A program made the translations under genes and the position numbers. Of a DNA stretch of 64,000 bases, positions 3,105 through 60,544 are shown one piece after another. The stretch spans positions 31,630-95,629 of the forward strand of contig CAYZRE010000001.1 in assembly GCA_964479835.1 (NCBI GenBank). The letters run 5' to 3'. Under the pieces are notes generated by a model. It ran no database searches. It saw only the letters and a list, made by a program, of their open reading frames with translations, and had not been told where the DNA came from. The number at the start of each line of letters is the position of its first letter. Position 1 is the first letter of the stretch. This DNA comes from an uncultured Candidatus Saccharibacteria bacterium (GTDB taxonomy: Bacteria > Patescibacteriota > Minisyncoccia > 2-02-FULL-40-12 > GWA2-44-9).

Positions 3105-3191
3105 CGGAGAGGGTGAGATTCGAACTCACGGGGCTCTTGCGAGCCCGGCGGTTTAGTAAACCGCTGCTTTAGACCGCTCAGCCACCTCTCC
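3105..3191 (-). tRNA. class II (long variable arm) Ser-type tRNA with apparent anticodon ACU (loop TTACTAA)
   Basis: Minus strand, 87 nt. Acceptor GGAGAGG/CCTCTCC, G73 discriminator, 3-bp D-stem with long D-loop. Anticodon stem GCGGT/ACCGC, loop TTACTAA. 18-nt variable arm hairpin GGGCTC-GCAA-GAGCCC. T-arm GTGAG-TTCGAAT-CTCAC. Confidence 0.6.
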
Positions 3192-3193
3192 AG

Positions 3194-3372
3194 GGAATTG
3201 TAACGGAAGGATTCATCCTCCGGGTAAACGGCTCACAGTCTGAGCCGTTTACCTCCGGGCTCCGGCCCTCGTGGTATCGGCTACTGCCGATACATCACTC
3301 CGGGCTTCGAATCCTTCCGCGTATTCTACATGATACACAGACAGGTGCCACATGGCACCTGTCTGTGTATAT
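3194..3372. repeat. hairpin-rich spacer containing fragments of tRNA-Ser 3-prime ends in both orientations
   Basis: Copies of GGAAGGATTC / GAATCCTTCCG (matching the T-arm/acceptor of the adjacent tRNA-Ser) at 3202-3216 and, inverted, 3304-3319. Perfect hairpins at 3228-3258 (13-bp stem), 3280-3299 (8 bp) and 3336-3369 (15-bp stem, loop ACAT). Confidence 0.4.
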
Positions 3373-3462
3373 GCGGAGACGGAAGGATTCGAACCTTCGG
3401 TTCGGTTTGACCCGAACACCTCTTTAGCAAAGAGGCTCATTAGACCACTCTGACACGTCTCC
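3373..3462 (-). tRNA. tRNA-Ser(GCT)
   Basis: Minus strand, 90 nt. Acceptor GGAGACG/CGTCTCC, G73. Anticodon arm CCTCT-TTGCTAA-AGAGG. 20-nt variable arm, T-arm GAAGG-TTCGAAT-CCTTC. Confidence 0.8.
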
Positions 3463-20334: not shown

Positions 20335-23300
20335 ATGTCCGATTTCAAGGAGCTTGAAGAGCGCATGCTCGCATTCTGGGAAGACAACGATGTCTTCCGA
20401 AAAAGCATGCATCAACACGAAGGACGGAAGCCATTCGTGTTCTTCGAGGGGCCGCCGACAGCCAACGGAAATCCCGGCATCCATCATGTCATCGCGCGCG
20501 TCTTCAAAGACCTCATCAGTCGCTACAAAACAATGCGCGGACACTTTGTATTGCGCAAAGGCGGATGGGATACCCATGGACTACCCGTTGAAATACAAGT
20601 CGAGAAAGAATTGGGATTCAAGAGCAAGAAAGATATCGAAGCGTACGGCATCGCCGCCTATAATGCCAAGTGTCGTCAGTCTGTATGGAAATTCAAGGAA
20701 GAGTGGGAGCGCTTCACGCGCCGCATTGGATACTGGGTAGACCTCCAGAATCCGTATGTGACCTATGAGAATCCGTACATCGAATCGCTCTGGAACATCA
20801 TCGGCCGCATCTGGGACAAGAAGCTACTCTATCAGGCGCACCGTGTCGTTCCATTCTGCACTCGCTGCGGTACGCCGTTGTCCAGTCATGAAGTCGCACA
20901 GGGCTATAAAACGGTCACGGACAATTCGGTGTATCTGAAGTTCAAAGTGAAGAGTTCCAAGCTCAAGCTTCCCAAGAATTCGTTCATTCTGGCATGGACC
21001 ACAACGCCGTGGACATTACCGGGCAACGTCGCACTCGCGGTTGGTCGCGACATCAACTATGTCCTCGCCACATCAAGCGGAGGAGACGAGCATTATATTA
21101 TTGCTGCTGACCTGGCCAATAAAGTACTGGGTGCGCCGCTTGCTATCGAACGCCAGTTCACGGGCCGTGAACTCATCGGCACTTCCTACCAGCCGTTATT
21201 TGCCGTCAAAGCTCTCAAAAAACCGAAGTCATACAAAGTGTATGAGGCCGATTTTGTTTCAACTACTGATGGCACGGGTGTCGTACACACAGCGGTTATG
21301 TACGGTGAGGACGATTATCAGCTGGGCACGAAGCTCGGACTAGTGAAACAGCACACCGTTGATGAACAGGGGAAATTCTTCGGTGTATCGAAAGAGTTGG
21401 ACGGAGCATATGTCAAAGCCGTGAGTACAGAAGCCATTATTCTGGATAAACTGAAAGCTGATAACGCATTACTCACGACTGCTCCCTTCGAGCATGAGTA
21501 TCCGTTTTGCTGGCGTTGTGATACTCCGCTGTTGTATTACGCGAAGGACAGCTGGTTCATCCGCATGAGCGCAATCAATGCTCAACTGCTTGCAAATAAC
21601 GATACGATTAACTGGGTTCCGGAACATCTCAAAGACGGGCGTTTCGGCCAGTGGCTTCGCGAAGGAAAGGATTGGGCGTTTTCTCGTGAGCGCTACTGGG
21701 GTACACCGCTTCCCATTTGGCAGGCCCGCGACAAGAAAGGCAAGGGGACCGGGCAGTGTCTGGTCGCTCACTCAATGGAAGACCTCGACACCTATCGCGG
21801 CGATAAGCCGGCTCACTTCTGGGTGATGCGCCACGGTGAAGCGCGCAAAAATGTGGACCATATCATCGACCAGGGCGAACTTGAGTCGCCGCTGACTGAT
21901 GTCGGCAGAGAGCAGGTAATCAGCGCGGCGCGGGCGCTCAAAAAACAATTATCTTCCGCGCGCACGAAATTGACCGCCGTCATCTCATCACCGATTCAGC
22001 GAACACTGGAGACGGCCGAGATTGCAGCGCAGGAGTTGGGCATAAAGACCATCGTTACCGATGAACGATTGCGCGAAATTAAACTCGGTCCGACACTGGC
22101 CGGATGTCATGACGGTAAGTACCACGAGCTCTACCCGACCTACGAGTCCAAGTTCACCCAGCAGCCGCCCGGGGGTGAGTCACTCGCCGATTTGAGGACC
22201 CGCATGTGGCAGATGCTTACGGAGCTGAACACGAAGTACTCCGGCAAAGATGTTTTGCTGGTCAGCCACGAATATCCCATCTGGATGATGACGGATGCAG
22301 CAAACGCGTGGAACAGGGAGCAGTCCATTACCGAGAAACAGAAACGCGGGAATGATTTTATCGGGTTTGCGTCCGTCGAGCAGCTGGTTGTGCGCAATCT
22401 ACCGCGCGACCCCGCAGGTATGCTGGACCTACACCGACCGTTCATCGACGATATTGTTCTGAAGTATCCCGATAGTTCTGCCAAGCTATATCGCGTGCCG
22501 GAAATTGCCGATGTGTGGTTCGATTCCGGTGCTATGCCCTATGCGCAGTGGCACTGGCCATTTGAGAATGAAAAAGTTTTCCAACAGCAGTTCCCGGCCG
22601 ATTTCATCTCCGAGGCCATCGATCAAACCCGCGGATGGTTCTACACGCTGTTGGCGGTCTCTACATTATTAGGTGACGGTGCACCGTACAAAAATGTACT
22701 GTCTCTGGGGCACATCTTAGATGAGAAGGGTCAGAAGATGTCAAAATCGAAAGGCAATATCGTCATGCCTGACGATGTATTCAGCGCGGTCGGCATTGAC
22801 GCAACGCGTTGGTATTTTTATACGGTAAATGCGCCGGGCGATACAAAGAATTTCTCCATGAAGGAGGTGCGCGAGCGTTTGACCGGTTTTATGATGACAC
22901 TCAACAACTGTCTGCGTTTCTATGAACTGTACCGAGCACAGCACGATACGATTCATCCGGAATTTTCCTCGGAGTCTTCTTCGAACTTGCTGGACAAGTG
23001 GATTGTGTCGCGACTGCGCGAGGTTACCGTGCTGGCGACTGCGCGACTGGACACCTACGATATTACCGTGGCTGCCCGCGAGCTGGAGCGATTCGTCGTA
23101 GACGATTTTAGTCAGTGGTGGCTTCGTCGCAGTCGCAAGCGCAGCGATGCTCTGCCGTTGCTGAGGCATATCCTGCGCTCGTTATCACTACTTCTCGCCC
23201 CGTTTATTCCGTACACAGCCGAGGAGCTGTGGCAGAAGCTCAAGTCGGAAGGGGACCCTCTCTCGGTACACCTTGCCGATTGGCCCGCCACCGGCGACAA

Positions 23301-23811
23301 GACGGCGATTGATGTGCAACTACACCAACAGATGATGCAGGTACGCGAGTACATCAGTGCCGGACTTGCGGCACGCAAAGAAAATCAGATTAAAGTCCGC
23401 CAACCTCTGCAATCAGTGACCGTCCCGGGCAAAAAATTGCACAATGACTTGGAAGATCTTATCCGTGATGAACTCAATGTGAAAGAAGTGAAATATGAAC
23501 CCGGTGCCGCAATTATGCTCGATGTGCACATTGGTACGCAATTGCGCGCGGAAGGATTCGCGCGTGAAGTGATGCGTACCGTGCAGGATATGCGCAAGGA
23601 ATTAGGCTGTCAGGTGACCGACCGCGTGTACTGCCAATGGTTTAGTGAGGATGCAGAAGTCAGCGCTGCGCTTCTTCAGCACGGCGACATGATTGCCCGC
23701 GAGACGGGCCTGTCGGCATTCGTGCATCAGGCCGACGATAAGACGCTTACCATTGAGAAAAACTTCGAGCTTGCTCTCGGTAAAGCTCTTTGGATTGGTA
23801 TCCGAAAATAA
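20335..23811 (+). CDS. ileS: isoleucyl-tRNA synthetase with embedded histidine-phosphatase (PGM-like) domain
   Basis: HIGH variant PPTANGNPGIHHV, KMSKS (KMSKSKGN), WCxRC, GTPLPIW, DVWFDSG. About 250-aa insert carrying RHGE...SPLT...VSHE histidine-phosphatase motifs between GTPLPIW and DVWFDSG. Confidence 0.9.
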   Translation: MSDFKELEERMLAFWEDNDVFRKSMHQHEGRKPFVFFEGPPTANGNPGIHHVIARVFKDLISRYKTMRGHFVLRKGGWDTHGLPVEIQVEKELGFKSKKDIEAYGIAAYNAKCRQSVWKFKEEWERFTRRIGYWVDLQNPYVTYENPYIESLWNIIGRIWDKKLLYQAHRVVPFCTRCGTPLSSHEVAQGYKTVTDNSVYLKFKVKSSKLKLPKNSFILAWTTTPWTLPGNVALAVGRDINYVLATSSGGDEHYIIAADLANKVLGAPLAIERQFTGRELIGTSYQPLFAVKALKKPKSYKVYEADFVSTTDGTGVVHTAVMYGEDDYQLGTKLGLVKQHTVDEQGKFFGVSKELDGAYVKAVSTEAIILDKLKADNALLTTAPFEHEYPFCWRCDTPLLYYAKDSWFIRMSAINAQLLANNDTINWVPEHLKDGRFGQWLREGKDWAFSRERYWGTPLPIWQARDKKGKGTGQCLVAHSMEDLDTYRGDKPAHFWVMRHGEARKNVDHIIDQGELESPLTDVGREQVISAARALKKQLSSARTKLTAVISSPIQRTLETAEIAAQELGIKTIVTDERLREIKLGPTLAGCHDGKYHELYPTYESKFTQQPPGGESLADLRTRMWQMLTELNTKYSGKDVLLVSHEYPIWMMTDAANAWNREQSITEKQKRGNDFIGFASVEQLVVRNLPRDPAGMLDLHRPFIDDIVLKYPDSSAKLYRVPEIADVWFDSGAMPYAQWHWPFENEKVFQQQFPADFISEAIDQTRGWFYTLLAVSTLLGDGAPYKNVLSLGHILDEKGQKMSKSKGNIVMPDDVFSAVGIDATRWYFYTVNAPGDTKNFSMKEVRERLTGFMMTLNNCLRFYELYRAQHDTIHPEFSSESSSNLLDKWIVSRLREVTVLATARLDTYDITVAARELERFVVDDFSQWWLRRSRKRSDALPLLRHILRSLSLLLAPFIPYTAEELWQKLKSEGDPLSVHLADWPATGDKTAIDVQLHQQMMQVREYISAGLAARKENQIKVRQPLQSVTVPGKKLHNDLEDLIRDELNVKEVKYEPGAAIMLDVHIGTQLRAEGFAREVMRTVQDMRKELGCQVTDRVYCQWFSEDAEVSAALLQHGDMIARETGLSAFVHQADDKTLTIEKNFELALGKALWIGIRK

Positions 23812-37723: not shown

Positions 37724-39220
37724 ATGACGGAATATCTCACGACAATCGGGCTCGAAGTACATGCGGAGCTGAACACGAAAACAAAGATGTTCTGCGACTG
37801 CGCCAACGACCCATTGGAGAAATCTCCCAACCTGAACATCTGTCCCATCTGTATGGGCCATCCCGGAACGCTCCCGGTTATCAATCGCGGCGCCGTCATG
37901 CGACTCATTGCGGCCGGTTTGGCGCTGGGGTGCAGTATCGAAAAACACTCATTCTTCGAGCGCAAGAATTATTTCTATCCCGACCTCCCCAAGGGCTATC
38001 AGATATCCCAGTTTCAGGTCCCATTTTGTCGGGAGGGCTCGTTGACCGTCAACGGAAAAAAAATTCGCATCGAGCGTATCCATCTGGAAGAGGATGCCGG
38101 AAAGCTGATACATGAGTCGGCAGGTGATGTAACGCTTGCCGATTACAACCGCGCCGGTGTTCCGCTCATGGAGTTGGTCACCCATCCCGACCTTACGCAA
38201 GCCGAAGAGGTGCGCCGGTTTGCCCAAGAGCTTCAACTCATTCTGCGTTACTTGCATGTGTCCGATGCTGACATGGAGAAAGGTCAGATGCGGGTTGAGG
38301 TTAATTTATCCCTACGGCCCAAAGGACAAAAAGAATATGGCACTAAAGTAGAGGTCAAAAATATCAATTCAATTTCTTCCGCCGCAAAGTCGGCCGATTA
38401 TGAAATAAAGAGACAGAGGGAGGTGCTTGAATCGGGCGGGACGCTCGTGCAGGAGACGCGAGGATGGGATGATGTGCATGACAAGACCGTGAGCCAACGA
38501 ATCAAAGAGGGGAGCGCCGACTACCGGTACTTCCCCGAACCCGACCTCCCGCCCATCGTATTTACCGATGAGGAGATAGAAGCCATCCGCGCATCGCTTC
38601 CGGAGCTTCCGGCGGCCCGTCGGGCGCGGTTTGGTCGCGAGTATGGCCTGCCCGAAGGCGATGTGGAAATTTTGACGGTGTTCAAAGAGTTGGGTGATTA
38701 TTTTGAAGAGGTTGTCTCGGAGTTGAAGGCAGAAGACGATCCCATTACGGGCGAGGCATTGAATGGTCTCGCTACGCGAGATCTCGCGAAGCGAGACAAA
38801 CTTTCAAAAGTAGCTGCCAACTGGCTTATCACGCAACTACAGCCGAAGCTCAATGCCGTCTCGGCAGTCCCCCAGGACACAAAAATTACTCCTGCGCTGT
38901 TCGCTGACTTTATCGTCCGTGTGGCGTCAGGACAGATTGGCAGTACCGCCGCACAAGTTGTATTGCAGGCGATGTGGGAGACGGGGGAAGACCCCGAAGA
39001 CATTATTAAATCAAAAGATCTCGCGCAGGTGTCGGATTCCGTATCGATGAATAGCTTTGTTGAGGACGCTATCGCCCAGAGCGAAAAAATCGTTGCCGAC
39101 TTCAAGAGCGGCAAGGAGCCGGCCCTCAAGGCGCTTGTCGGCAAGGTGATGGTGCTCTCCAAAGGCAAGGCGGACCCGCAGGTGGCCGAGCAGATGTTAC
39201 GGGATAAGCTGAGCTCGTAG
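37724..39220 (+). CDS. gatB: Asp-tRNA(Asn)/Glu-tRNA(Gln) amidotransferase subunit B
   Basis: MTEYLTTIGLEVHAELNTKTKMFCDC. 498 aa with the GatB/YqeY C-terminus. Confidence 0.9.
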   Translation: MTEYLTTIGLEVHAELNTKTKMFCDCANDPLEKSPNLNICPICMGHPGTLPVINRGAVMRLIAAGLALGCSIEKHSFFERKNYFYPDLPKGYQISQFQVPFCREGSLTVNGKKIRIERIHLEEDAGKLIHESAGDVTLADYNRAGVPLMELVTHPDLTQAEEVRRFAQELQLILRYLHVSDADMEKGQMRVEVNLSLRPKGQKEYGTKVEVKNINSISSAAKSADYEIKRQREVLESGGTLVQETRGWDDVHDKTVSQRIKEGSADYRYFPEPDLPPIVFTDEEIEAIRASLPELPAARRARFGREYGLPEGDVEILTVFKELGDYFEEVVSELKAEDDPITGEALNGLATRDLAKRDKLSKVAANWLITQLQPKLNAVSAVPQDTKITPALFADFIVRVASGQIGSTAAQVVLQAMWETGEDPEDIIKSKDLAQVSDSVSMNSFVEDAIAQSEKIVADFKSGKEPALKALVGKVMVLSKGKADPQVAEQMLRDKLSS

Positions 39221-39353
39221 GGTTTGTGGATAACACATATTGACGCGACAAGCGACCCGGAATAAGTTGTAGGTGGGTCTCAAGAGAAAGAAAGCCAACC
39301 GCAAGGGGAAGCTAGGGAGTGTGTAACAAAACTATATCGCTCTTGGGGCCTAC

Positions 39354-39388
39354 AAAATGAACCACCATCGGTGGCTCATTTTGTTTTT
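39354..39388. terminator. bidirectional hairpin terminator between gatB and miaA
   Basis: 13-bp stem AAAATGAACCACC/GGTGGCTCATTTT (one mismatch) with T-tracts on both sides. Confidence 0.5.
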
Positions 39389-40314
39389 CCGGCAGACTTC
39401 AAGAATTTGTTTACCAGCCTTCGGGCATGAGCAGTGTTTTTTATCCTGACAATGTCGGGATTCTTACGCCACCAGGTGAGTTGGCGTTTTGCGTAGGCGA
39501 TAATGTCGCGCAGGAGCCCGTCGCGCATCGCTACGAGGTTCAACCTCCTCTGCTGCCGAGGTTGAACCTCGGCAGACTGCAGATACTGCGCGACCCAGCG
39601 ATACTCGAGGCCCAACACTTCAAGGCGCTTCCATGAGACACCGCTTTTGTGTAGACGATGAACCTCAGCAAGCATGCCATGTTTAAGCCGGGCATCCAAC
39701 CGCTTCCGGATACGGAGTTTGAGTTGTGCCACAGGGAGCGAAATGCCCAGATATAACGGCTCATACGGTGAGCCGTTTATCCTTTTGGGCACCGGACGGC
39801 CGGTAGTAAGGACGATTTCCAGTGCACGGATGAGGCGGACAGGGTTGTGACGGTCGATGGTCGCAGCGCGGGCGGGGTCGAGCTTCTCAAGGCGCGCAAA
39901 GAGCTGTGCCGAGGACAGTTGCCGCAGCTTAGCGCGTAGTTTCGCATTTGGTCTCACTGCGGGCAGGGAGAGGTCATACACGAGCGCATCTATCCAAAAT
40001 CCCGTACCGCCACAGATGATGGGGAGTTTGCCACGACGCACGATATCTCGGACGGCCTTCTGCGCCTTGCGCTTAAAGCGGGCCACAGAATACTGACGGG
40101 TAGGGGAGGCGACATCTAACAGCCAATGACGCACCAGTTCCTGCTCGCGTTTTGTGACTTTGCCCGTGCCGATATCCATGCCACGGTACACCTGCCGTGA
40201 ATCGGCGGAGATGATTTCTCCATTGAATCTTCGGGCCAGCGCAATCGCTATATCAGATTTTCCTGAAGCGGTGGGGCCTGAAATCACTACTATCTTCACC
40301 TTATCGGACGCCAT
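39376..40314 (-). CDS. miaA: tRNA dimethylallyltransferase
   Basis: P-loop GPTASGKS, ADSRQVYRGMDIGTGK. Start chosen at the Met before the P-loop; overlaps the thrS stop by about 14 nt. Confidence 0.8.
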   Translation of the reverse strand: MASDKVKIVVISGPTASGKSDIAIALARRFNGEIISADSRQVYRGMDIGTGKVTKREQELVRHWLLDVASPTRQYSVARFKRKAQKAVRDIVRRGKLPIICGGTGFWIDALVYDLSLPAVRPNAKLRAKLRQLSSAQLFARLEKLDPARAATIDRHNPVRLIRALEIVLTTGRPVPKRINGSPYEPLYLGISLPVAQLKLRIRKRLDARLKHGMLAEVHRLHKSGVSWKRLEVLGLEYRWVAQYLQSAEVQPRQQRRLNLVAMRDGLLRDIIAYAKRQLTWWRKNPDIVRIKNTAHARRLVNKFLKSAGKTK

Positions 40315-42049
40315 CCGATTTCGCCGCGATTTCTTTTTTGAGATTCGAGATGAACTGGTCAAGCGACATCTGTCCCAAGTCCTCGCCGCCGCGTTTGCGT
40401 ACCGACACAACCCCTGCGGCGATGTCTTTGTCGCCCAGTATCACGGCGTAGGGAACTTTCATCGTCTCGGTAGCGCGGATCTTCTTTCCGATGGTCTCTT
40501 TTGCGTCATCCACCTGAACGCGGATACCCGCAAGCAGCAGCTCGGGGAGCAGTGCATGCGCGGCGTCGCTATGTTTATCGGAGATGGGAAGTACTGCCAC
40601 CTGAACAGGGGACAGCCATAACGGAAGTGCGCCTGCGGTGTGCTCGATGAGCACTGCCATAAACCGCTCGAGGGAGCCCATAATGGCCGCATGAATCATT
40701 ACGATGCGCTCCTTCTCTGCTTTTTCGTTGGTGCAGGTGAGGTCAAAGCGCTCCGGCATGTTCATGTCGAGCTGAATCGTGGCAACCTGATGCTCGCGCC
40801 CGATGGCGTCGCGCCCCATGAAATCAAGTTTCGGACCGTAGAACGCAGCCTCACCAAGGCCGTCGATAGCATCAATATTTTTGTCGGAAACAATGGAGTG
40901 AAGTATCTCTTCAGCAGCTTCCCAATTAGCGGCGTTACCCAGATATTTCTCCGGCTGTGCAGGGTCGCGCAGAGACAACCGCACGCGCAGGGGGATACTA
41001 AACGCACCGTAGAATTCGTGAATGATATCCCATATCTTGAGGGCTTCCTCTTTCACCTGACTCATACGGCAAAACACATGGGCATCGTCCTGTGTGATTG
41101 AGCGTACGCGTGTAATGCCGGCGAGTTCGCCGGACTGTTCGTCGCGGTACACCATGGTTGTGTTTGCGTATCGCTGGGGAAGCTCGCGGTAGCTGTGAGG
41201 ACGGCGTGCGTAGATTTGTGCGTGGTGCGGGCAGTTCATGGGCTTCATGGCAAACTCATGCCCCTCGCGCGTGGTGATGCGGAACAGGTCATCTTTGTAT
41301 TTTTCCCAGTGGCCACTTTTCTCGTATAGCTCTTTTTTCGTGATGTGCGGGATTTCGACGCGCTCGTATCCGCGGGCGCGGCGCAATGACCAGACGAAAT
41401 CGTCCAGTAAGTTGCGTACCAGGGTGCCACGGGGAGTCCACAGCGGCAGACCGGAGCCGACCAATTCGGAGAAGGTAAACAGGTCGAGTTGGAGACCCAG
41501 CACTTTGTGGTCGCGCTTTTTTGCCTCCTCTATCATGGTGACATGCGCGTTCAGCGCTTCGGCGGTCTCAAACGCATAGCCGTAGATGCGGGTGAGCATG
41601 GTGTTCTTCTCGTCGCCCCGCCAATACGCGCCGGCAACCTTATCGAGCTTGAACGATGCTGGGTCGATAGAGGATGGGTCGTCGACATGACCTCCGCGGC
41701 ATAGGTCGGTGAAGTCTCCCGAGGTGTACAGCGTTATTTTTTCGCCTTTGGCGGCAATCTCTTCAATCAGTTCGAGCTTGTAGGGGTTGCCGTTGAAAAG
41801 CGAGCGTGCCTGGTCGGCCGACACCTCTTTGTGTAAAAAGGATTTCCAGGAGGGCAGTAGTTTCTTCATGGTCGCTTCGATGCGGGTCAAATCCTCGTCG
41901 CTGATGGGTTTGGAGAATTCGAAATCGTAGTAAAAACCGGTGTCGATGGCGGGTCCGATAGTGGGCTTTGCGTCCGGGTGCAACTCCGTAACAGCCGCGG
42001 CGAGCAGGTGGGCCAACGAGTGACGGATGTGTTCGATGTTCTGTGCCAT
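40301..42049 (-). CDS. thrS: threonyl-tRNA synthetase (lacks N-terminal TGS domain)
   Basis: Class II motifs, editing-domain HxxxH (IRHSLAHLLA), anticodon-binding C-terminus. 582 aa. Confidence 0.9.
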   Translation of the reverse strand: MAQNIEHIRHSLAHLLAAAVTELHPDAKPTIGPAIDTGFYYDFEFSKPISDEDLTRIEATMKKLLPSWKSFLHKEVSADQARSLFNGNPYKLELIEEIAAKGEKITLYTSGDFTDLCRGGHVDDPSSIDPASFKLDKVAGAYWRGDEKNTMLTRIYGYAFETAEALNAHVTMIEEAKKRDHKVLGLQLDLFTFSELVGSGLPLWTPRGTLVRNLLDDFVWSLRRARGYERVEIPHITKKELYEKSGHWEKYKDDLFRITTREGHEFAMKPMNCPHHAQIYARRPHSYRELPQRYANTTMVYRDEQSGELAGITRVRSITQDDAHVFCRMSQVKEEALKIWDIIHEFYGAFSIPLRVRLSLRDPAQPEKYLGNAANWEAAEEILHSIVSDKNIDAIDGLGEAAFYGPKLDFMGRDAIGREHQVATIQLDMNMPERFDLTCTNEKAEKERIVMIHAAIMGSLERFMAVLIEHTAGALPLWLSPVQVAVLPISDKHSDAAHALLPELLLAGIRVQVDDAKETIGKKIRATETMKVPYAVILGDKDIAAGVVSVRKRGGEDLGQMSLDQFISNLKKEIAAKSDGVR

Positions 42050-46505: not shown

Positions 46506-46572
46506 TCACTTGGCCATAGACCAAGCATGGAGGCGATGCCGCCGTGCGTGATGTGTGGCTGGGCGTCACGAG

Positions 46573-47274
46573 ATGTCGAGTCAGAAGCTGGCGCCTCTTC
46601 AGGAGCGCATCGGATATTCGTTTAAAAACTCCAAACTGTTGGAGCAAGCATTGACGCACCGCTCGTATCTCAACGAGCATCCCGACTGGCCCATCGGCCA
46701 CAACGAACGACTGGAATTTTTGGGAGATGCGGTGTTGGAACTTATCGTCACTGATTATCTGTACGAGAACTATCCGACGAACCCGGAAGGGGAAATGACC
46801 AACTGGCGCGCCGCGCTGGTGAACGCCAATATTCTCTCGGAAATTACCGCGGATTTCGGACTCAACGACTTTATGTTGCTTTCACGCGGAGAAGCTCGCG
46901 ACATGGGACGGGCACGGCAGTATATTCTGGCGAATGCCATCGAGGCGCTCATCGGCGCGATGTACCTCGACGGCGGGTACGAGCCCTGCAAAGCATTTGT
47001 CACTAAATTTGTGCTCGTCCGTCTTGCCGATATTATCTCAAAAAAGTCATACCGCGATTCGAAATCGCTCCTGCAGGAACAGGCGCAAGACCGCATCGGC
47101 GTGACACCAACCTACCGAGTGACCGAAGAGTGGGGGCCAGACCATGCCCGGCAGTTCAAAATCGGTGTGTATCTGGGCAAGGAACATGTGGGCGAGGGAC
47201 AGGGCGAGAGTAAACAAGATGCGCAACAGGCGGCGGCTGAAGACGCTCTGCGCAACAAGGGTTGGAGGGGATAA
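46573..47274 (+). CDS. rnc: ribonuclease III
   Basis: Signature ERLEFLGDAVLELIVTDYLY; C-terminal dsRBD. Confidence 0.85.
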   Translation: MSSQKLAPLQERIGYSFKNSKLLEQALTHRSYLNEHPDWPIGHNERLEFLGDAVLELIVTDYLYENYPTNPEGEMTNWRAALVNANILSEITADFGLNDFMLLSRGEARDMGRARQYILANAIEALIGAMYLDGGYEPCKAFVTKFVLVRLADIISKKSYRDSKSLLQEQAQDRIGVTPTYRVTEEWGPDHARQFKIGVYLGKEHVGEGQGESKQDAQQAAAEDALRNKGWRG

Positions 47275-47285
47275 CTTATATATAA

Positions 47286-47657
47286 ATGGATACAATACCA
47301 ACTCCGATTTCCAACAATGACCCGCAACCCATAGAAGCAAGGTCGGGCTATTCTCGCTCGCGCATGTTTGCAATTGTGCTTCTTATTGCTCAATTATTCC
47401 TGATAGTACTATCAGCTTTGTTGGTGACCAGTGGACGAGGGCTACTCACGCTAGCCACCAGCTTCCTCATGACTCCTGTTACGCTGCTCGGGATTATTCT
47501 CTCCATTCGACTTATTGTAAAAGTAAGAGAAAGTCGCCTCCTCGGCTATGCCCTCCTGGTGCTATTTATTGCATTCTATTGGTATCAGTACGACATCGAG
47601 CATCTCCTTGTTGCCCAGTGGGATAACTATTATGAAAGCAGAACGAGGAGTTACTAA
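47286..47657 (+). CDS. hypothetical membrane protein (123 aa)
   Basis: Three TM helices. Confidence 0.4.
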   Translation: MDTIPTPISNNDPQPIEARSGYSRSRMFAIVLLIAQLFLIVLSALLVTSGRGLLTLATSFLMTPVTLLGIILSIRLIVKVRESRLLGYALLVLFIAFYWYQYDIEHLLVAQWDNYYESRTRSY

Positions 47658-47687
47658 AGAAAACGCCGCCCTCTTTCGGGGGCGGCG
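47655..47687 (-). terminator. intrinsic terminator (minus orientation)
   Basis: CGCCGCCC...GGGGGCGGCG 8-bp stem followed on the minus strand by TTTTCTTT. Confidence 0.45.
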
Positions 47688-47693
47688 GTGGCG

Positions 47694-47960
47694 TTAGCGC
47701 CATTGCATGGTCAGGTCGGCGATGAGGCTGGTGTGGATGGAGACGATGATGGTCTTTTCCGGCGACTCCCACAGTAGAGTGACCACCTCGTCCCCGAACT
47801 TTAGCCGCGTCGGCGGCTTGAGTGCCAGGGTGGTCTCTCCGCCGATGTTGTCGATATGGTCGATGACATCGAAGGGGAAGATCCCACCGATGTTGCCGGG
47901 CCTCCAGCCACGGTCGTCCACGAGCTGGAGCGGCTTGGTGAACTTGATGAGGACCAGCAT
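47694..47960 (-). CDS. hypothetical small protein (88 aa), second gene of a coupled pair
   Basis: Protein-like composition. Start ATG overlaps the stop of the upstream ORF (TAATG). The upstream part of ORF 47694..48251 was judged an alternative-frame artefact. Confidence 0.35.
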   Translation of the reverse strand: MLVLIKFTKPLQLVDDRGWRPGNIGGIFPFDVIDHIDNIGGETTLALKPPTRLKFGDEVVTLLWESPEKTIIVSIHTSLIADLTMQWR

Positions 47961-48325
47961 TATCTCTCCTTGACCGTCAAATTGGCAGGGATGCGAATCT
48001 CGCGTTGTCTCGCTCCCGCGATGACGAGCGTTTTTCCGCGACACATCACTACCAGGTCCTCGAGGGCACATGCGGCCGATTCGGCCATGGCCAACGGGGG
48101 CTGCATGGTTTCCCTGAGCCAGAGGGTCGAGGAACCGTTCACGCAGTCGATTCGCAGATTCGCAACCCACTCCTTGGAAATGTGATGGAATTCGACGCGG
48201 ATGATGAGGCGTGCCTTGCGGGCGAACCTTTCGAGAGTGGTCACTGTGCACTTCCTTTCAATGAGCGACGATTTAATCATACCACATGAATGCGATAATG
48301 GCAAATACTTGCCTTTTCTGCGCAT
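47961..48325 (-). CDS. hypothetical small protein (about 106-121 aa), weak PilZ-like features
   Basis: ORF divergent from rpsP. RxxxR-like ERFARKAR and a D/N..G segment. Assignment uncertain. Confidence 0.35.
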
Positions 48326-48345
48326 GTGGTGTAAGATAATGAACT

Positions 48346-48633
48346 ATGTTGATGATTCGTCTGCAACGCATCGGGAAAAAGAAACAAGCCCATTTTAAGG
48401 TGGTTGTGCTCGAGCACACCAAGAAACCCCAGGGCAAGTACCAGGAAATGCTCGGAACCTACGATCCCCGTGGTAAGGTGTTCAAGGCGGACCGCGAACG
48501 CGTTGAGGCCTGGATGGCCAAGGGCGCGCAGATTAGCCCAACCGTCAACAACCTCATGGTCAATTACAAGATATGGGACCGGCCGAAGATGGAGAGCTGG
48601 AAACCGAAGAAGAAAAAGGAAGAAAAGAAGTAA
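48346..48633 (+). CDS. rpsP: 30S ribosomal protein S16 (Lys-rich C-terminal tail)
   Basis: MLMIRLQRIGKKKQAHFKVVV. Confidence 0.85.
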   Translation: MLMIRLQRIGKKKQAHFKVVVLEHTKKPQGKYQEMLGTYDPRGKVFKADRERVEAWMAKGAQISPTVNNLMVNYKIWDRPKMESWKPKKKKEEKK

Positions 48634-48644
48634 TACGAAAATCA

Positions 48645-48677
48645 CAAGAGGGAGCCAAGGGGCTCCCTCTTGCTTTG
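48645..48677 (+). terminator. hairpin terminator after rpsP
   Basis: 12-bp stem CAAGAGGGAGCC/GGCTCCCTCTTG, followed by a weak U-tract. Confidence 0.45.
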
Positions 48678-48684
48678 AGAGACA

Positions 48685-49317
48685 ATGCAGATGCTCACCA
48701 TAGACCTCACCGCGGATTATATGCCCGCCACAGACCGGCTTGTCGCTGTGTTGCGCCGTGGTGGTACGGCGGTCTTCCCGACGGACACACTCTACGGGTT
48801 AGGATGTAACGCGTTGGACGGGACTGCGGTCGGCAGAGTATTTGATATTAAACACCGCAGTTATGTGAAAGCACTGCCGATGCTGGTTCGTGATCTATCA
48901 TGGGCTCGGGAGCTTGCCTACATCACTCCCGAACAGGAGAAAGTCATCGAGCGCTTCTGGCCGGGTAAAGTAACTTTTGTACTCCCACGTCGCTCACTGG
49001 TCCCGGCCGTCATGTGCGGGGGAGGGCAGACCGTCGGTATCCGCGCGCCCGACTACCCGTTCCTCCAGACGCTGTTGCGCCACTTGGGCTATCCGCTCAC
49101 GGGGACTTCAGCAAATGTGTCAGGTTCGGAACCGACCAGCGACGCCGTGCACATTGCCGCCGCATTTGCGGCTACGGCTCCTCAACCGGATGTGATTATT
49201 GATGCCGGGCCGTTGCCCGATTCACTCCCATCGACTGTTGTGGACCTTTCCGGTCGCATGCCGCGAATTCTACGCCAAGGCGCAGTGCGTGCTGACAAGA
49301 TATTGGCGCTCTTGTAG
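48685..49317 (+). CDS. tsaC: L-threonylcarbamoyladenylate synthase (YrdC/Sua5 family)
   Basis: FPTDTLYGLGCNALD motif; about 210 aa. Confidence 0.8.
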   Translation: MQMLTIDLTADYMPATDRLVAVLRRGGTAVFPTDTLYGLGCNALDGTAVGRVFDIKHRSYVKALPMLVRDLSWARELAYITPEQEKVIERFWPGKVTFVLPRRSLVPAVMCGGGQTVGIRAPDYPFLQTLLRHLGYPLTGTSANVSGSEPTSDAVHIAAAFAATAPQPDVIIDAGPLPDSLPSTVVDLSGRMPRILRQGAVRADKILALL

Positions 49318-49320
49318 GCC

Positions 49321-49485
49321 TAGAGCATATTTCAGAACCCTCTTTCGTAGCGAGATCACAGAATGGTGAGCGAAAGACGAAGAAATTTCCGAGGCATAGC
49401 CGGAGCTACGCCGAGGAAAGTTCTGAAGTCTTGCAGCCAGCATTCTGGGATTGCAGCAGAATACGGGGTTCTGAAATATGCTCTA
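49321..49485. mobile_element. MITE-like 165-bp element with 20-bp perfect terminal inverted repeats
   Basis: TAGAGCATATTTCAGAACCC at 49321-49340 and its exact reverse complement at 49466-49485. Internal short inverted repeats. No coding capacity. Confidence 0.4.
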
Positions 49486-49791
49486 ACACTTGGCGATGTG
49501 CACATGCATCTCCTGACCGCAGTGTTGGCAACGCTTTTCGGTCAGTGCGCACGAGAGGCAGAGATGAAAATCCTGGCTTGTCGTGTGCACTGAACAGTGC
49601 GTACAGGTGCCGTTGCGGCTGTCGACCCACGAACCGTCGCATTCACGACAGAGCAGATAGGATTCGGGCAACGGTTCCGACCGCTGACGCTCCTGCTTTT
49701 GTTTGTGTAATTGTTTCATCCCTCCGCGCACGCAGCGCGATACGCGCATGATAGCATGTTGATTTTCCTTGCAATGGGGGCAGGTGTGCAT
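49483..49791 (-). CDS. Cys-rich small protein with five CxxC motifs (multi zinc-ribbon)
   Basis: CPHC, CREC, CTHC, CLSC, CQHC. Stop lies inside the right TIR of the MITE-like element. Confidence 0.4.
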   Translation of the reverse strand: MHTCPHCKENQHAIMRVSRCVRGGMKQLHKQKQERQRSEPLPESYLLCRECDGSWVDSRNGTCTHCSVHTTSQDFHLCLSCALTEKRCQHCGQEMHVHIAKC

Positions 49792-50345: not shown

Positions 50346-50427
50346 TGCCCGGGGTGGGAGTTGAACCCACAAGCCTTGCGGCACACGATTTTGAGTCGTG
50401 CGTGTATGCCAATTCCACCACCCGGGC
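50346..50427 (-). tRNA. tRNA-Leu(CAA)
   Basis: Minus strand. Acceptor GCCCGGG/CCCGGGC, A73. Anticodon arm CACGA-CTCAAAA-TCGTG. Long variable arm. T-loop GGTTCAACTCC. Confidence 0.8.
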
Positions 50428-53945: not shown

Positions 53946-55988
53946 CTATAACTCTTTTGTGGCGGTATCAACCTTCGACTCCTCGGGTGCCGCCGCATCT
54001 TTGGCAATCTTTTCGGTGTGTTTGCATTTCGGGAAATTCACGCAGGCGATAAACTTGCCGAAGCGACCGGCGCGGTAGATGAGCTCACCTCCGTCTTTGG
54101 GGCAGACACGGCCGACTTTTTCAACCGGCGCGGTTGATTTTGGTTCTTTGAGTATGTTTTTGCAGGTGGGGAAGTTCGAGCAGGCGATAAATTTTCCGAA
54201 ACGACCGCGCTTGACCACCATCGGACTGCCGCACTTGTCACAGGTTTTATCGGTGGTTTCTACCTCGGAATCTTTGGAGACCTGCGCTTGCTCCATCTTT
54301 TCCTTGATGCCCAACGCCAGCGGCGCATAGAACGCGCGGATGGTAGGTACCCACTGGCGTGTGCCGGCGGCGATGTCGTCGAGCTGGTCTTCCATACCGG
54401 AGGTGAACTTCGGGTCTACGATGCGCGGGAATTGTTCCACCAGGTAGTCGTTCACATCCAAGCCGATTTGCGTGGGGTGAAAATAGCGGGAGCGGTCTTT
54501 TTCCACATACTTACGCAAAATGATGGTCGATATGATGGCCGCGTAGGTGCTGGGACGGCCGATACCTTCTTTTTCCAGTGTCTTGATGAGCGATGCTTCG
54601 TTATATCGGGGGGGTGGCTTGGTGAAGTGTTGTTCGGGTTTGAGCTCCTGCAGGGCAAGCGTTTCACCGGAGCGCACCAGCGGTAGATCGTTGTCTTCGA
54701 ACTTGGACGGCAGGACCTTGAGCCATCCGTCGAACTTGAGCACCGAACCGTTCGCGCGGAAGCCGTAGCTGACAGTTGGTAGCTTGTAGCTGGTAGCTCC
54801 GATGTCGATGGCGGTCGCATCAAACACCGCATCGGCCATCTGGGATGCCAAGAACCGCCGCCAGATAAGGTCGTAAACTTTCAGTTGCTGCGGAGACAGT
54901 GAGGCGGCCATGACTTCCGGCGTACGCTCGGGATCGGTGGGACGCACCGCTTCGTGCGCTTCCTGCGCGCTCTTGGATTTCGTCTTGAACTTACGGCGTT
55001 TGTAATAATTCGCTCCGTATTGAGATTCGATGAACGCTTTGGACTGCCCGAGCGACTGTTCGGACACACTGACAGAATCGGTGCGCATGTAGGTAATGTA
55101 GCCTGCTTCGTACAGACCTTGCGCGAACATCATCGTCTGCTTGCTGGAGTAGTGGAGGCGTTTGTTTGATTCCTGTTGGAGCGTGGAGGTCGTAAACGGC
55201 GCGTGCGGCATACGCGATGTTTCGGTGCGCTCAACCGCGGCGACCGTAAAGGGAGAGCCATCCAACGCCGCAAGTATCTTTTTCGATGTGATTTCGTCGG
55301 GGATGTCGAACTTGTCCAGGGGTTTGCCGTCGCGTGCCGTCAGTTGAGCGATGATGGGCAGGTCTTTGTGTTCGTCGGATAGCAGTGTCGCAGTGATGGT
55401 CCAGTATTCCGCCGGCTTGAACGCTTCGATTTCGCGTTCGCGGTCGACAATCAACCGTGTGGCGACAGATTGTACGCGCCCCGCCGAAAGGCCGCGGTAG
55501 TAACGCTTCCAGAGCACCGGCGAGAGCTTATAGCCGACCAGACGGTCCAGCACGCGGCGTGCCTGCTGGGCATCTACCAGATGACGGTCGATATCCCGCG
55601 GATTCGCGATGGCGTGCTCAATGGCCTGTTTGGTGATTTCATGAAAGACGATGCGCTGGATTTTGAGGTCTTTGTTTTTTTTCTTGAGCTTTGCCAGACC
55701 GAGCGCTTCATAGAGATGCCATGCAATCGCTTCTCCTTCGCGGTCTTCGTCTGTTGCCAGCACGATGGTGTCCGCTTTGGCCACTTCTTTTTTTAGCAGG
55801 GTGAGATTCTTCTTTGCCTTGGTCGGCACGATATAGGTTGGTGCGAACTCGTGTTCAGTGTCGATGCCTAGTTCTGATTTTGGCAAATCGCGCACATGTC
55901 CGTAACTTGAAAGCACGACAAAATCATCTCCCAGATACTGGGAGATAGTCTTTGCTTTCGTGGGGGATTCGACGATAACGAGTTTCAT
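53946..55988 (-). CDS. topA: DNA topoisomerase I
   Basis: Toprim MKLVIVESPTKAKTI and two C-terminal CxxC zinc ribbons. Start placed at the Met immediately after the dprA stop. Confidence 0.9.
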   Translation of the reverse strand: MKLVIVESPTKAKTISQYLGDDFVVLSSYGHVRDLPKSELGIDTEHEFAPTYIVPTKAKKNLTLLKKEVAKADTIVLATDEDREGEAIAWHLYEALGLAKLKKKNKDLKIQRIVFHEITKQAIEHAIANPRDIDRHLVDAQQARRVLDRLVGYKLSPVLWKRYYRGLSAGRVQSVATRLIVDREREIEAFKPAEYWTITATLLSDEHKDLPIIAQLTARDGKPLDKFDIPDEITSKKILAALDGSPFTVAAVERTETSRMPHAPFTTSTLQQESNKRLHYSSKQTMMFAQGLYEAGYITYMRTDSVSVSEQSLGQSKAFIESQYGANYYKRRKFKTKSKSAQEAHEAVRPTDPERTPEVMAASLSPQQLKVYDLIWRRFLASQMADAVFDATAIDIGATSYKLPTVSYGFRANGSVLKFDGWLKVLPSKFEDNDLPLVRSGETLALQELKPEQHFTKPPPRYNEASLIKTLEKEGIGRPSTYAAIISTIILRKYVEKDRSRYFHPTQIGLDVNDYLVEQFPRIVDPKFTSGMEDQLDDIAAGTRQWVPTIRAFYAPLALGIKEKMEQAQVSKDSEVETTDKTCDKCGSPMVVKRGRFGKFIACSNFPTCKNILKEPKSTAPVEKVGRVCPKDGGELIYRAGRFGKFIACVNFPKCKHTEKIAKDAAAPEESKVDTATKEL

Positions 55989-59495: not shown

Positions 59496-60544
59496 AGATT
59501 ATAGACCAACTCGAAAACCTGGAAGGCAAAAAAGTGCTGTTGCGTGCGGATTTCGATGTGCCGGTCATAAACGGCTCAATCGGTGAGCCGTTCCGGATCC
59601 AGCGCCAGAGGGAGAATTTACGCTATCTTCTCGATCATGGAGCGCGCGTGACCATAGCGGCGCACATCAGCGCTGTGCCCAGCTTCGAACCGCTCGTGCC
59701 CCAGCTGGAGAAGATTCTTGGTGTCGACATCCAATTCGAGAACGGTGACGGCCCCGTGGTTCTGCGGGAGAATTTGCGAGCTGACCCCGGCGAAGAAAAC
59801 AATAATGAAGCGTTCGCACAAAAGTTAGTGGCCGGGTGTGATATCTACGTGAACAACGCGTTCGCGGTCTGCCATCGTGAGCATGCATCCGTTGTGACGG
59901 CGCCGATGATGATTCCCGCCTACGCCGGTCTGCTGGTGAAAGAAGAGACGGAGACGCTTTCGCAGTTTATTGACGCGCCCGCGCACGGTAAGGTGGTATT
60001 TATCGCCGGCGCCAAGGGAAGTACAAAAGCTCCGGTCGTCCGGCATATTATCGGGAAGGTACAGCAGGTGGTCGTGGGCGGGGTATTGGCCAACGATATA
60101 CTCAAAGCACTGGGCCGTGATGTCGGCAGTTCACAAGTGGATGAGAACGCACATGAGCTTTTAGCGGGGCTGGACCTGCATGATCCGCGCCTGGTGATAC
60201 CGACCGATGCGATTATCGACAACGGTCAGATGGTCGATATCGGTCCGCAGACGACGACCGCATTCACGGCACTGGCGGCATCCGCATCTCTGATTGTGTG
60301 GAACGGCCCCATGGGGCGTTATGAGGATGCGCGGTTCATGGCCGGGACCGAAGCGATCGCTCGCGCTATTACATCAAGCGGGGCACTATCGATTGTCGGA
60401 GGCGGGGACACTATCTCCGCGGTTGATTCACTCGGCTTGTTGGATAAATTCAAATTCGTCTCAACCGGCGGGGGAGCGATGCTCGCATTCCTTGCGGGCA
60501 CACAACTGCCCGGCCTCAGGGTGCTCGGGTATTACCATGACTAA
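59492..60544 (+). CDS. pgk: phosphoglycerate kinase (short, about 350 aa)
   Basis: LLRADFDVP near the N-terminus and a C-terminal GGGA motif (FVSTGGGAMLAFLAG). Start overlaps the tpiA stop (ATGA). Confidence 0.85.
   Translation: MKIIDQLENLEGKKVLLRADFDVPVINGSIGEPFRIQRQRENLRYLLDHGARVTIAAHISAVPSFEPLVPQLEKILGVDIQFENGDGPVVLRENLRADPGEENNNEAFAQKLVAGCDIYVNNAFAVCHREHASVVTAPMMIPAYAGLLVKEETETLSQFIDAPAHGKVVFIAGAKGSTKAPVVRHIIGKVQQVVVGGVLANDILKALGRDVGSSQVDENAHELLAGLDLHDPRLVIPTDAIIDNGQMVDIGPQTTTAFTALAASASLIVWNGPMGRYEDARFMAGTEAIARAITSSGALSIVGGGDTISAVDSLGLLDKFKFVSTGGGAMLAFLAGTQLPGLRVLGYYHD

Follow-up and report, generated by a model that had tools for sequence, protein, structure and literature searches.

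What occupies the 165 bp that separate tsaC from a small Cys-rich gene in this CPR genome, at a place where every relative examined carries folD? The segment (49321-49485, assigned to neither strand) is palindromic along its whole length, folds into a single long hairpin, and fills the folD slot of all the relatives. Our best explanation, which we hold at roughly even confidence, is that the segment represents a lone non-autonomous transposable element, intact or as a relic, of the kind known as bacterial MITEs, and that it is linked to the loss of folD.

The element lies within the window, by which we mean the whole 64-kb stretch of DNA that was analyzed, in a neighborhood of housekeeping genes: dnaE, rpmF, nusB, rnc, rpsP, tsaC, a tRNA gene, parA, parB, relA/spoT, and topA. 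Both of its immediate neighbors are intact. Specifically, tsaC (48685-49317, + strand), to the left, encodes a 210-aa protein of the Sua5/YciO/YrdC family (PF01300) that is 91% identical to its nearest homologues over its full length; TsaC homologues labeled Paceibacterota/Yanofskybacteria assign the window to the CPR. To the right, on the - strand, lies the small Cys-rich gene (49483-49719), whose homologue-supported form encodes 78 aa within a maximal ORF that reaches 49791. The Cys-rich protein contains four CxxC motifs and a C-terminal Cys. The four motifs are invariant, and the nine homologues present among 5.8 billion proteins all belong to this clade. Against Pfam, the Cys-rich protein yielded no significant match.

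The original prediction described 165 bp with perfect 20-bp terminal inverted repeats (TIRs), enclosing 125 bp of non-coding DNA with further inverted repeats and starting 3 bp past the tsaC stop. The sequence reads exactly so. The left TIR, TAGAGCATATTTCAGAACCC (49321-49340, + strand), starts with TA and places a TAG in frame 3 bp past the tsaC stop (49315-49317). The right TIR, GGGTTCTGAAATATGCTCTA (49466-49485, - strand), is the exact reverse complement of the left one, and the Cys-rich gene has its TAG stop in the last three bases of this repeat. The element has TA as its first and last two bases. Between the TIRs, the 125-bp core (49341-49465, no strand) is imperfectly palindromic; its apex loop (49401-49404) reads CGGA, and the apical stem is flanked by symmetric internal GA/GA loops. 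Inverted complementarity continues inward from the TIRs: the arms are 72% complementary over 58 nt without gaps, and the whole element is about 70% self-complementary when compared over its full length with its own reverse complement. It is by a wide margin the longest inverted repeat of the window. With up to three mismatches allowed, the TIR 20-mer is found at two places in the 64 kb, both in the element, against a chance expectation of 0.01, and two matches were reached in none of 100 shuffles. The element is lower in G+C than its flanks (47.9% versus 55.2%). That the interior is non-coding agrees with a Pfam search of the ORFs overlapping the element, which gave no match at E values up to 1.

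The palindrome is not equally regular throughout. Because the outer 20 bp are perfect and the interior, at about 60-70% pairing, is far less regular, the pattern suggests that the termini were recognized or constrained separately, in the manner of transposase binding sites. A second copy of the TIR core, GTTCTGAA, occurs internally (49420-49427, + strand) and is complementary to 49331-49338 in the left TIR. This 8-mer, only marginally above chance, might be a subterminal repeat or might offer the left TIR another sequence to pair with, and it fits weakly with the idea of separate recognition.

The identity of the DNA that the element replaces comes from the relatives. We fetched loci whose TsaC is 81-91% identical to that of the window, together with contigs carrying homologues of the Cys-rich protein. 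In every contig that spans the junction, rpsP is followed by tsaC, then by folD (about 270 aa, + strand), and then by the Cys-rich gene on the - strand. The folD-bearing loci represent at least eight lineages (L001; L002; L003 with L004-L006; L007 with L008; L011; L012; L041; and L042-L044). FolD is the bifunctional methylene-THF dehydrogenase/cyclohydrolase, and its gene adjoins tsaC in all relatives examined. In these relatives the stop codons of folD and of the Cys-rich gene overlap by about 3 bp, and the Cys-rich gene is always convergent with folD. A blastn comparison with L002 defines the replacement: window positions 48302-49316 correspond to L002 1285-2301, and 49483-49799 correspond to L002 3137-3487. 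Between these collinear blocks, L002 has 835 bp containing folD and the window has the 165-bp element (window 49318-49482 versus L002 2303-3136). The comparison involves at least eight lineages lacking the element, but the site in those lineages holds folD and is not a simple empty site; it differs from that of the window by a whole gene, which does not directly demonstrate an insertion.

In a neighbor-joining tree of tsaC nucleotides, the window falls inside the folD-bearing relatives as sister to L011, with L007 and then L001/L003 further out. Since the window is nested among folD-bearing relatives, folD is ancestral and was lost in this lineage. A tblastn search of the 64-kb window revealed no folD elsewhere, and no folate or one-carbon genes were noticed in the window. 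The element is also unlike anything around it: no similar sequence was detected in its flanks, elsewhere in the window, or in 214 kb of the relatives' DNA. A decayed folD remnant was considered and rejected. Specifically, the best local alignment of the element to the folD genes of six relatives scores 20, compared with 22 +/- 2.2 for shuffles, and at the protein level tblastn with FolD gives only noise in the element. By sequence comparison, then, the element is lineage-specific DNA that either arrived or arose at a site of gene loss.

The same comparison settles two points of the original prediction. As an alternative to a transposable element, it had offered a large structured regulatory RNA, favored by syntenic conservation in relatives. 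All of the relatives carry folD at this place and none carries the element; the element is lineage-specific, so a syntenically conserved RNA is ruled out. The prediction had also stated that the right end of the element supplies the stop codon of the Cys-rich gene. The overlap itself holds, in that 49483-49485 (CTA) reads as TAG on the - strand. The stop codon, however, is ancestral, given that all homologues of the Cys-rich protein stop at the same invariant Cys, and the element merely overlaps it.

Two further features of the relatives concern the DNA near this locus. At a distance of only 1 kb, the rnc-rpsP spacer is variable, and the sets of small unannotated ORFs that it contains differ from relative to relative (window 47286-48300; L001 2033-2561; L003 1230-2396). 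In L012, a tandem AATAGAA/AGTAGAA-like repeat (1522-1558) fills the spacer between tsaC and folD, which indicates that the spacer upstream of folD is unstable in this clade.

The junctions offer a clue as to how the element could have arrived. On the left, the sequence runs ...CTC TTG TAG GCC and then TA GAGCAT...; on the right, it runs ...ATGCTC TA and then ACACTTGGCG. The GCC between the tsaC stop and the element (49318-49320, + strand) may have been the final codon of the lost folD, although three bases alone are not significant. When the element and one TA are removed, the sequence becomes GCCTAACAC, which is identical to the overlap of the folD and Cys-rich gene stops in L002 (ACC GCC TAA CAC). 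The flanks outside the TIRs, GGCC and ACAC, are not repeated. The junctions are compatible with insertion at TA and duplication of that TA, and a duplicated TA, being self-complementary, would be inseparable from the TIR itself. In one relative, L002, the sequence TAGAGACA stands where the left end of the element would lie. We considered whether the TAGAGCA of the left end is native tsaC-folD spacer; L002 alone has TAGAGACA there, the match is ambiguous, and we did not use it. That sequence could equally align with the first bases of the element, which would weaken the case for insertion at TA. The notion of a TA insertion is attractive but not proven, given the self-complementarity of TA, the small weight of three bases, and the presence of TAGAGACA in L002.

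If the element is mobile, copies and a transposase might exist elsewhere, and the original prediction had proposed looking for both. Within the host, the 64-kb window was covered: no second copy of the TIR, at up to three mismatches, or of any part of the element, by blastn at word size 7, is present in it. Public DNA was scanned by exact match. The exact 18-mer GAGCATATTTCAGAACCC has 10 matches in 596 Gb of representative genomes, where we estimate about 17 by chance on both strands, and 18 matches in metagenome contigs. All 28 matches are single arms in unrelated taxa, none extends past 24-28 nt, and none has an inverted partner nearby at up to five mismatches. In viral contigs the 18-mer has 0 matches and a two-arm gapped pattern found nothing, and blastn of the element at a distant setting gave no match to plasmids and phages. 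Thus, the expectation of multiple copies was not borne out, with none in the window and, in the genome and metagenome collections, nothing beyond single-arm matches at the level of chance. The expectation of a cognate transposase fared the same way: no domain of a transposase or an integrase was detected in any window ORF that is 90 aa or longer.

How much do these results say? Since the public scans were exact-match only and the host genome lies outside the collections, the absence of copies is weak evidence that counts little either way. Exact look-ups of the TsaC, S16, and Cys-rich proteins, the last in both its forms, had yielded no record. CPR genomes are typically about 0.8 Mb, a size that we assume here. 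The lack of an extra copy in the 8% of such a genome that the window represents argues against many tens of copies, not against a handful.

RNA folding underscores how far the palindrome extends. The + strand forms a single hairpin of -85.8 kcal/mol (z -10.4) with 62 pairs, 60 of them Watson-Crick and two G-U; the - strand forms the mirror fold, nearly as good, at -80.6 kcal/mol (z -8.9). For neither strand was any of 200 shuffles as good. Because G-U pairs are few (1-2) and the two strands are near-equal in stability, the element is palindromic at the level of DNA, and nothing suggests that selection favored one strand as RNA.

Several lines of evidence therefore converge on a MITE-like element: it is shorter than 200 bp, non-coding, bounded by perfect TIRs that end in TA, low in G+C, and a hairpin over its whole length, and it is foreign sequence absent from the relatives. 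The original prediction of a MITE stands as regards this anatomy and lacks the further copies and the parent transposase, so that MITE-like describes the element best and true membership is unproven.

The mechanism that we envision begins with insertion of the element at the TA common to the overlapping convergent stops of folD and the Cys-rich gene. Insertion would have duplicated the TA, and the inverted repeat continues with G, such that a TAG stop would be kept on each side. Subsequently, folD would have been deleted from just past the tsaC stop up to its last codon, the GCC. Alternatively, two copies of the element could have flanked folD, and recombination between them could have removed the gene and left one copy behind. 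Either way, the element now stands between two convergent genes whose ends would be 2 bp apart without it. Read-through transcription from either side would produce a hairpin whose basal stem has 20-21 perfect pairs. Such a hairpin would be a plausible barrier to transcription or to exonucleases and, by analogy with the Correia elements discussed below, a plausible substrate for RNase III. The rnc gene, encoding RNase III, lies 2 kb upstream of the element (46555-47274).

A hairpin of this stability, on both strands and placed exactly between the convergent 3' ends of tsaC and the Cys-rich gene, invites a different explanation, namely that the loss of folD was accompanied by the acquisition or evolution of a lineage-specific structured RNA or transcription barrier, not a mobile element, which now acts as a bidirectional terminator, an insulator, or an RNA-stability element. 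Its single-copy status in everything searched suits this explanation, as does a terminator scan that flagged the apex on the - strand as terminator-like (49404-49388, 5 pairs), with a U-rich stretch following the apical stem. The scan, however, found five terminator-like matches in the region versus 2.0 +/- 1.3 in shuffles, which is barely above chance, and the sequence just past the full hairpin is ACACUUGG on the + strand and GGCCUACA on the - strand, neither of which holds a U-tract. The other terminators of the window are short, ordinary hairpins, and 165 nt far exceeds the size that a terminator needs. Covariance models likewise point away from a known RNA: with Rfam 15, at E values up to 10 and with permissive filters, no family matched in 49200-49600, and at the Rfam gathering score the whole window contains six tRNAs only. 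A structure under selection would show itself by presence at the same locus and by covariation across relatives; the element is conserved in no relative, and covariation support is absent. Together with the few G-U pairs and the near-equal stability of the strands, which indicate a DNA palindrome, these results make a structured RNA unlikely in our judgment.

Could the palindrome instead have been made on the spot? In such a scenario, folD was removed by a break or deletion whose repair, through fold-back or template-switching synthesis, created a palindrome de novo, and the inner part of that palindrome later decayed. A repair or recombination scar of this type would account for the exact replacement of the deleted gene, for the uniqueness of the element in our searches, and for a palindrome that spans the entire length. 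Fold-back synthesis, however, copies local DNA, yet the element resembles neither folD nor the flanks, the window, or the relatives' loci. Moreover, random decay would not spare the outer 20 bp; we estimate the probability at about 0.7^20, below 0.001. The TA ends and the lower G+C resemble imported mobile DNA. We consider a scar distinctly improbable.

We also give a slim chance to something new: rather than a decayed transposon, the hairpin could be the working part of an undescribed process in which a chromosomal gene is swapped for a self-pairing cassette, or it could be a new single-copy structured RNA that a CPR bacterium with a reduced genome gained as folD was discarded. In the latter case, the RNA might be processed by RNase III and regulate the convergent tsaC and Cys-rich pair. 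We retain this reading because the element is unique, the replacement is exact to the base, both stops are kept, and the termini are constrained differently from the interior. Finally, an assembly or strain-mixing artefact, in which the junctions of tsaC, hairpin, and Cys-rich gene would exist in no single cell, deserves mention given that the source appears to be an uncultured CPR genome absent from the public collections and that palindromes are known trouble spots for assemblers, but it is very improbable: collinearity with the relatives extends on both sides up to the precise ends of the genes, the stops of both neighbors are intact, and assembler palindromes are perfect copies of adjacent DNA, usually at contig ends, whereas this one has imperfect arms, a unique sequence, and a position inside the window.

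A number of named classes were tried as candidates and set aside. For 6S RNA, the fold lacks the large central bubble and Rfam gave no match; SRP RNA, Y RNA, and retron ncRNA likewise had no Rfam covariance match at the element. An attC site is defined by RYYYAAC and GTTRRRY core sites at its two ends and by an integron integrase nearby. On the - strand, the GTTAGAG of the element ends in G, not Y, no RYYYAAC is present at the other end, and the window contains no integrase domain. With respect to REP/REPIN sequences, the element is single-copy and the window has no gene for a RAYT (IS200/IS605-like) transposase.

The window contains other hairpins and repeats. A short hairpin, AACGGCTCA-N5-TGAGCCGTT, occurs three times (3222-3253, 39755-39782, and 59567-59592) and may be a small repeated terminator-like or REP-like motif. 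One of its copies lies inside the miaA ORF (39376-40410, - strand); an apparent gap at 39220-40300 that we considered as a site for an unannotated RNA is the miaA gene itself, and Rfam finds nothing there. A perfect 18-bp inverted repeat with a 2-nt loop (3333-3370) lies between two tRNA genes (3105-3191 and 3374-3462). Two tRNA genes with long arms, 341-424 and 50346-50427 (- strand), are 85% identical over 47 nt. The second of these is located between parA and the region of the Cys-rich gene, at a distance of 860 bp from the element. In topA, a 53-nt direct repeat (54017-54069 and 54155-54207, 81% identical) reflects repeated C-terminal zinc-ribbon modules. Beyond repeats, the ORF for an isoleucyl/class-I tRNA synthetase (20335-23811, + strand, 1158 aa) includes a His_Phos_1 (histidine-phosphatase) domain at residues 496-661. 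That domain sits between two parts of the synthetase catalytic domain, an unusual insertion.

Why does a single palindrome matter? CPR genomes are small, and mobile DNA is usually considered scarce in them. A full-text literature search for MITEs in CPR/Patescibacteria found no paper describing one. If the element is a MITE, it would document a miniature transposon in a Paceibacteria-like CPR genome. It would also place such a transposon at the site where a metabolic gene, folD, was lost, providing a concrete case for the study of genome reduction. The loss of folD, for its part, raises the question of whether one-carbon (folate) metabolism has been lost in this genome. There is also a lesson for annotation: this hairpin is not to be called an RNA gene. 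On present evidence this is a single orphan element, which limits its general significance.

How does the element compare with known systems? Bacterial MITEs are shorter than 200 bp, non-coding, bounded by TIRs with 5'-TA-3' termini, and richer in A+T than their surroundings, and their transcripts form hairpins (PMC2229807). They range from one copy to hundreds per genome (PMC2229807; PMC10969869). Insertion at TA with TA duplication characterizes many bacterial MITEs and also RUP, which has an IS630-type parent (PMC2229807).

In architecture, our element is of the Correia/RUP type, with TIRs of about 18-20 bp, TA at either end, and a self-pairing body. The Correia elements, or NEMIS, of Neisseria share several traits with the element: they are about 100-160 bp, have TA termini, and are intergenic, often at the 3' ends of genes. 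They also have a TA duplication, which is a possibility for our element. Correia TIRs fall in the range of 20-26 bp, and to our knowledge their sequence is unrelated to that of the TIR described here. Correia elements resemble our element as well in having no known transposase. Their transcript forms a long hairpin that RNase III cuts in the TIR stem (PMC2229807; PMC10969869; PMC2649163), and this cleavage is experimentally established (PMC10969869; PMC2229807). Unlike the one copy of our element seen here, Correia elements exceed 100 copies per genome. The two differ, too, in promoter-like sites, which were looked for in our element and not found, and in the host, Neisseria for the one and a CPR bacterium for the other.

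RUP, a pneumococcal element mobilized by IS630-Spn1, is another short (107 bp) non-coding TIR element that inserts at TA (PMC2229807). If the junctions of our element are read as flanked by TA, they fit integration of the IS630/Tc1-mariner type. In contrast to RUP, with 108 copies and a parent IS bearing matching ends, our element has no copies, parent IS, or transposase in the window. Repeats of the ERIC/YPAL/REPIN type are imperfect palindromes of about 100-170 bp that form one hairpin, are often located where genes converge, and influence the stability of the mRNA once transcribed (PMC2229807; PMC10969869). They differ from our element in forming multi-copy families. In addition, REPINs need a RAYT transposase, of which the window has none, and YPAL lacks TA termini.

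Finally, MITEAba12 of Acinetobacter was defined from many copies across strains, whereas our element is without known relatives. MITEAba12 nonetheless ranges from one to 22 copies per genome and is single-copy in some genomes, as our element is in the window (PMC10969869). Among these systems, the 165-bp element joins no named family and is probably an orphan bacterial MITE or palindromic intergenic element.
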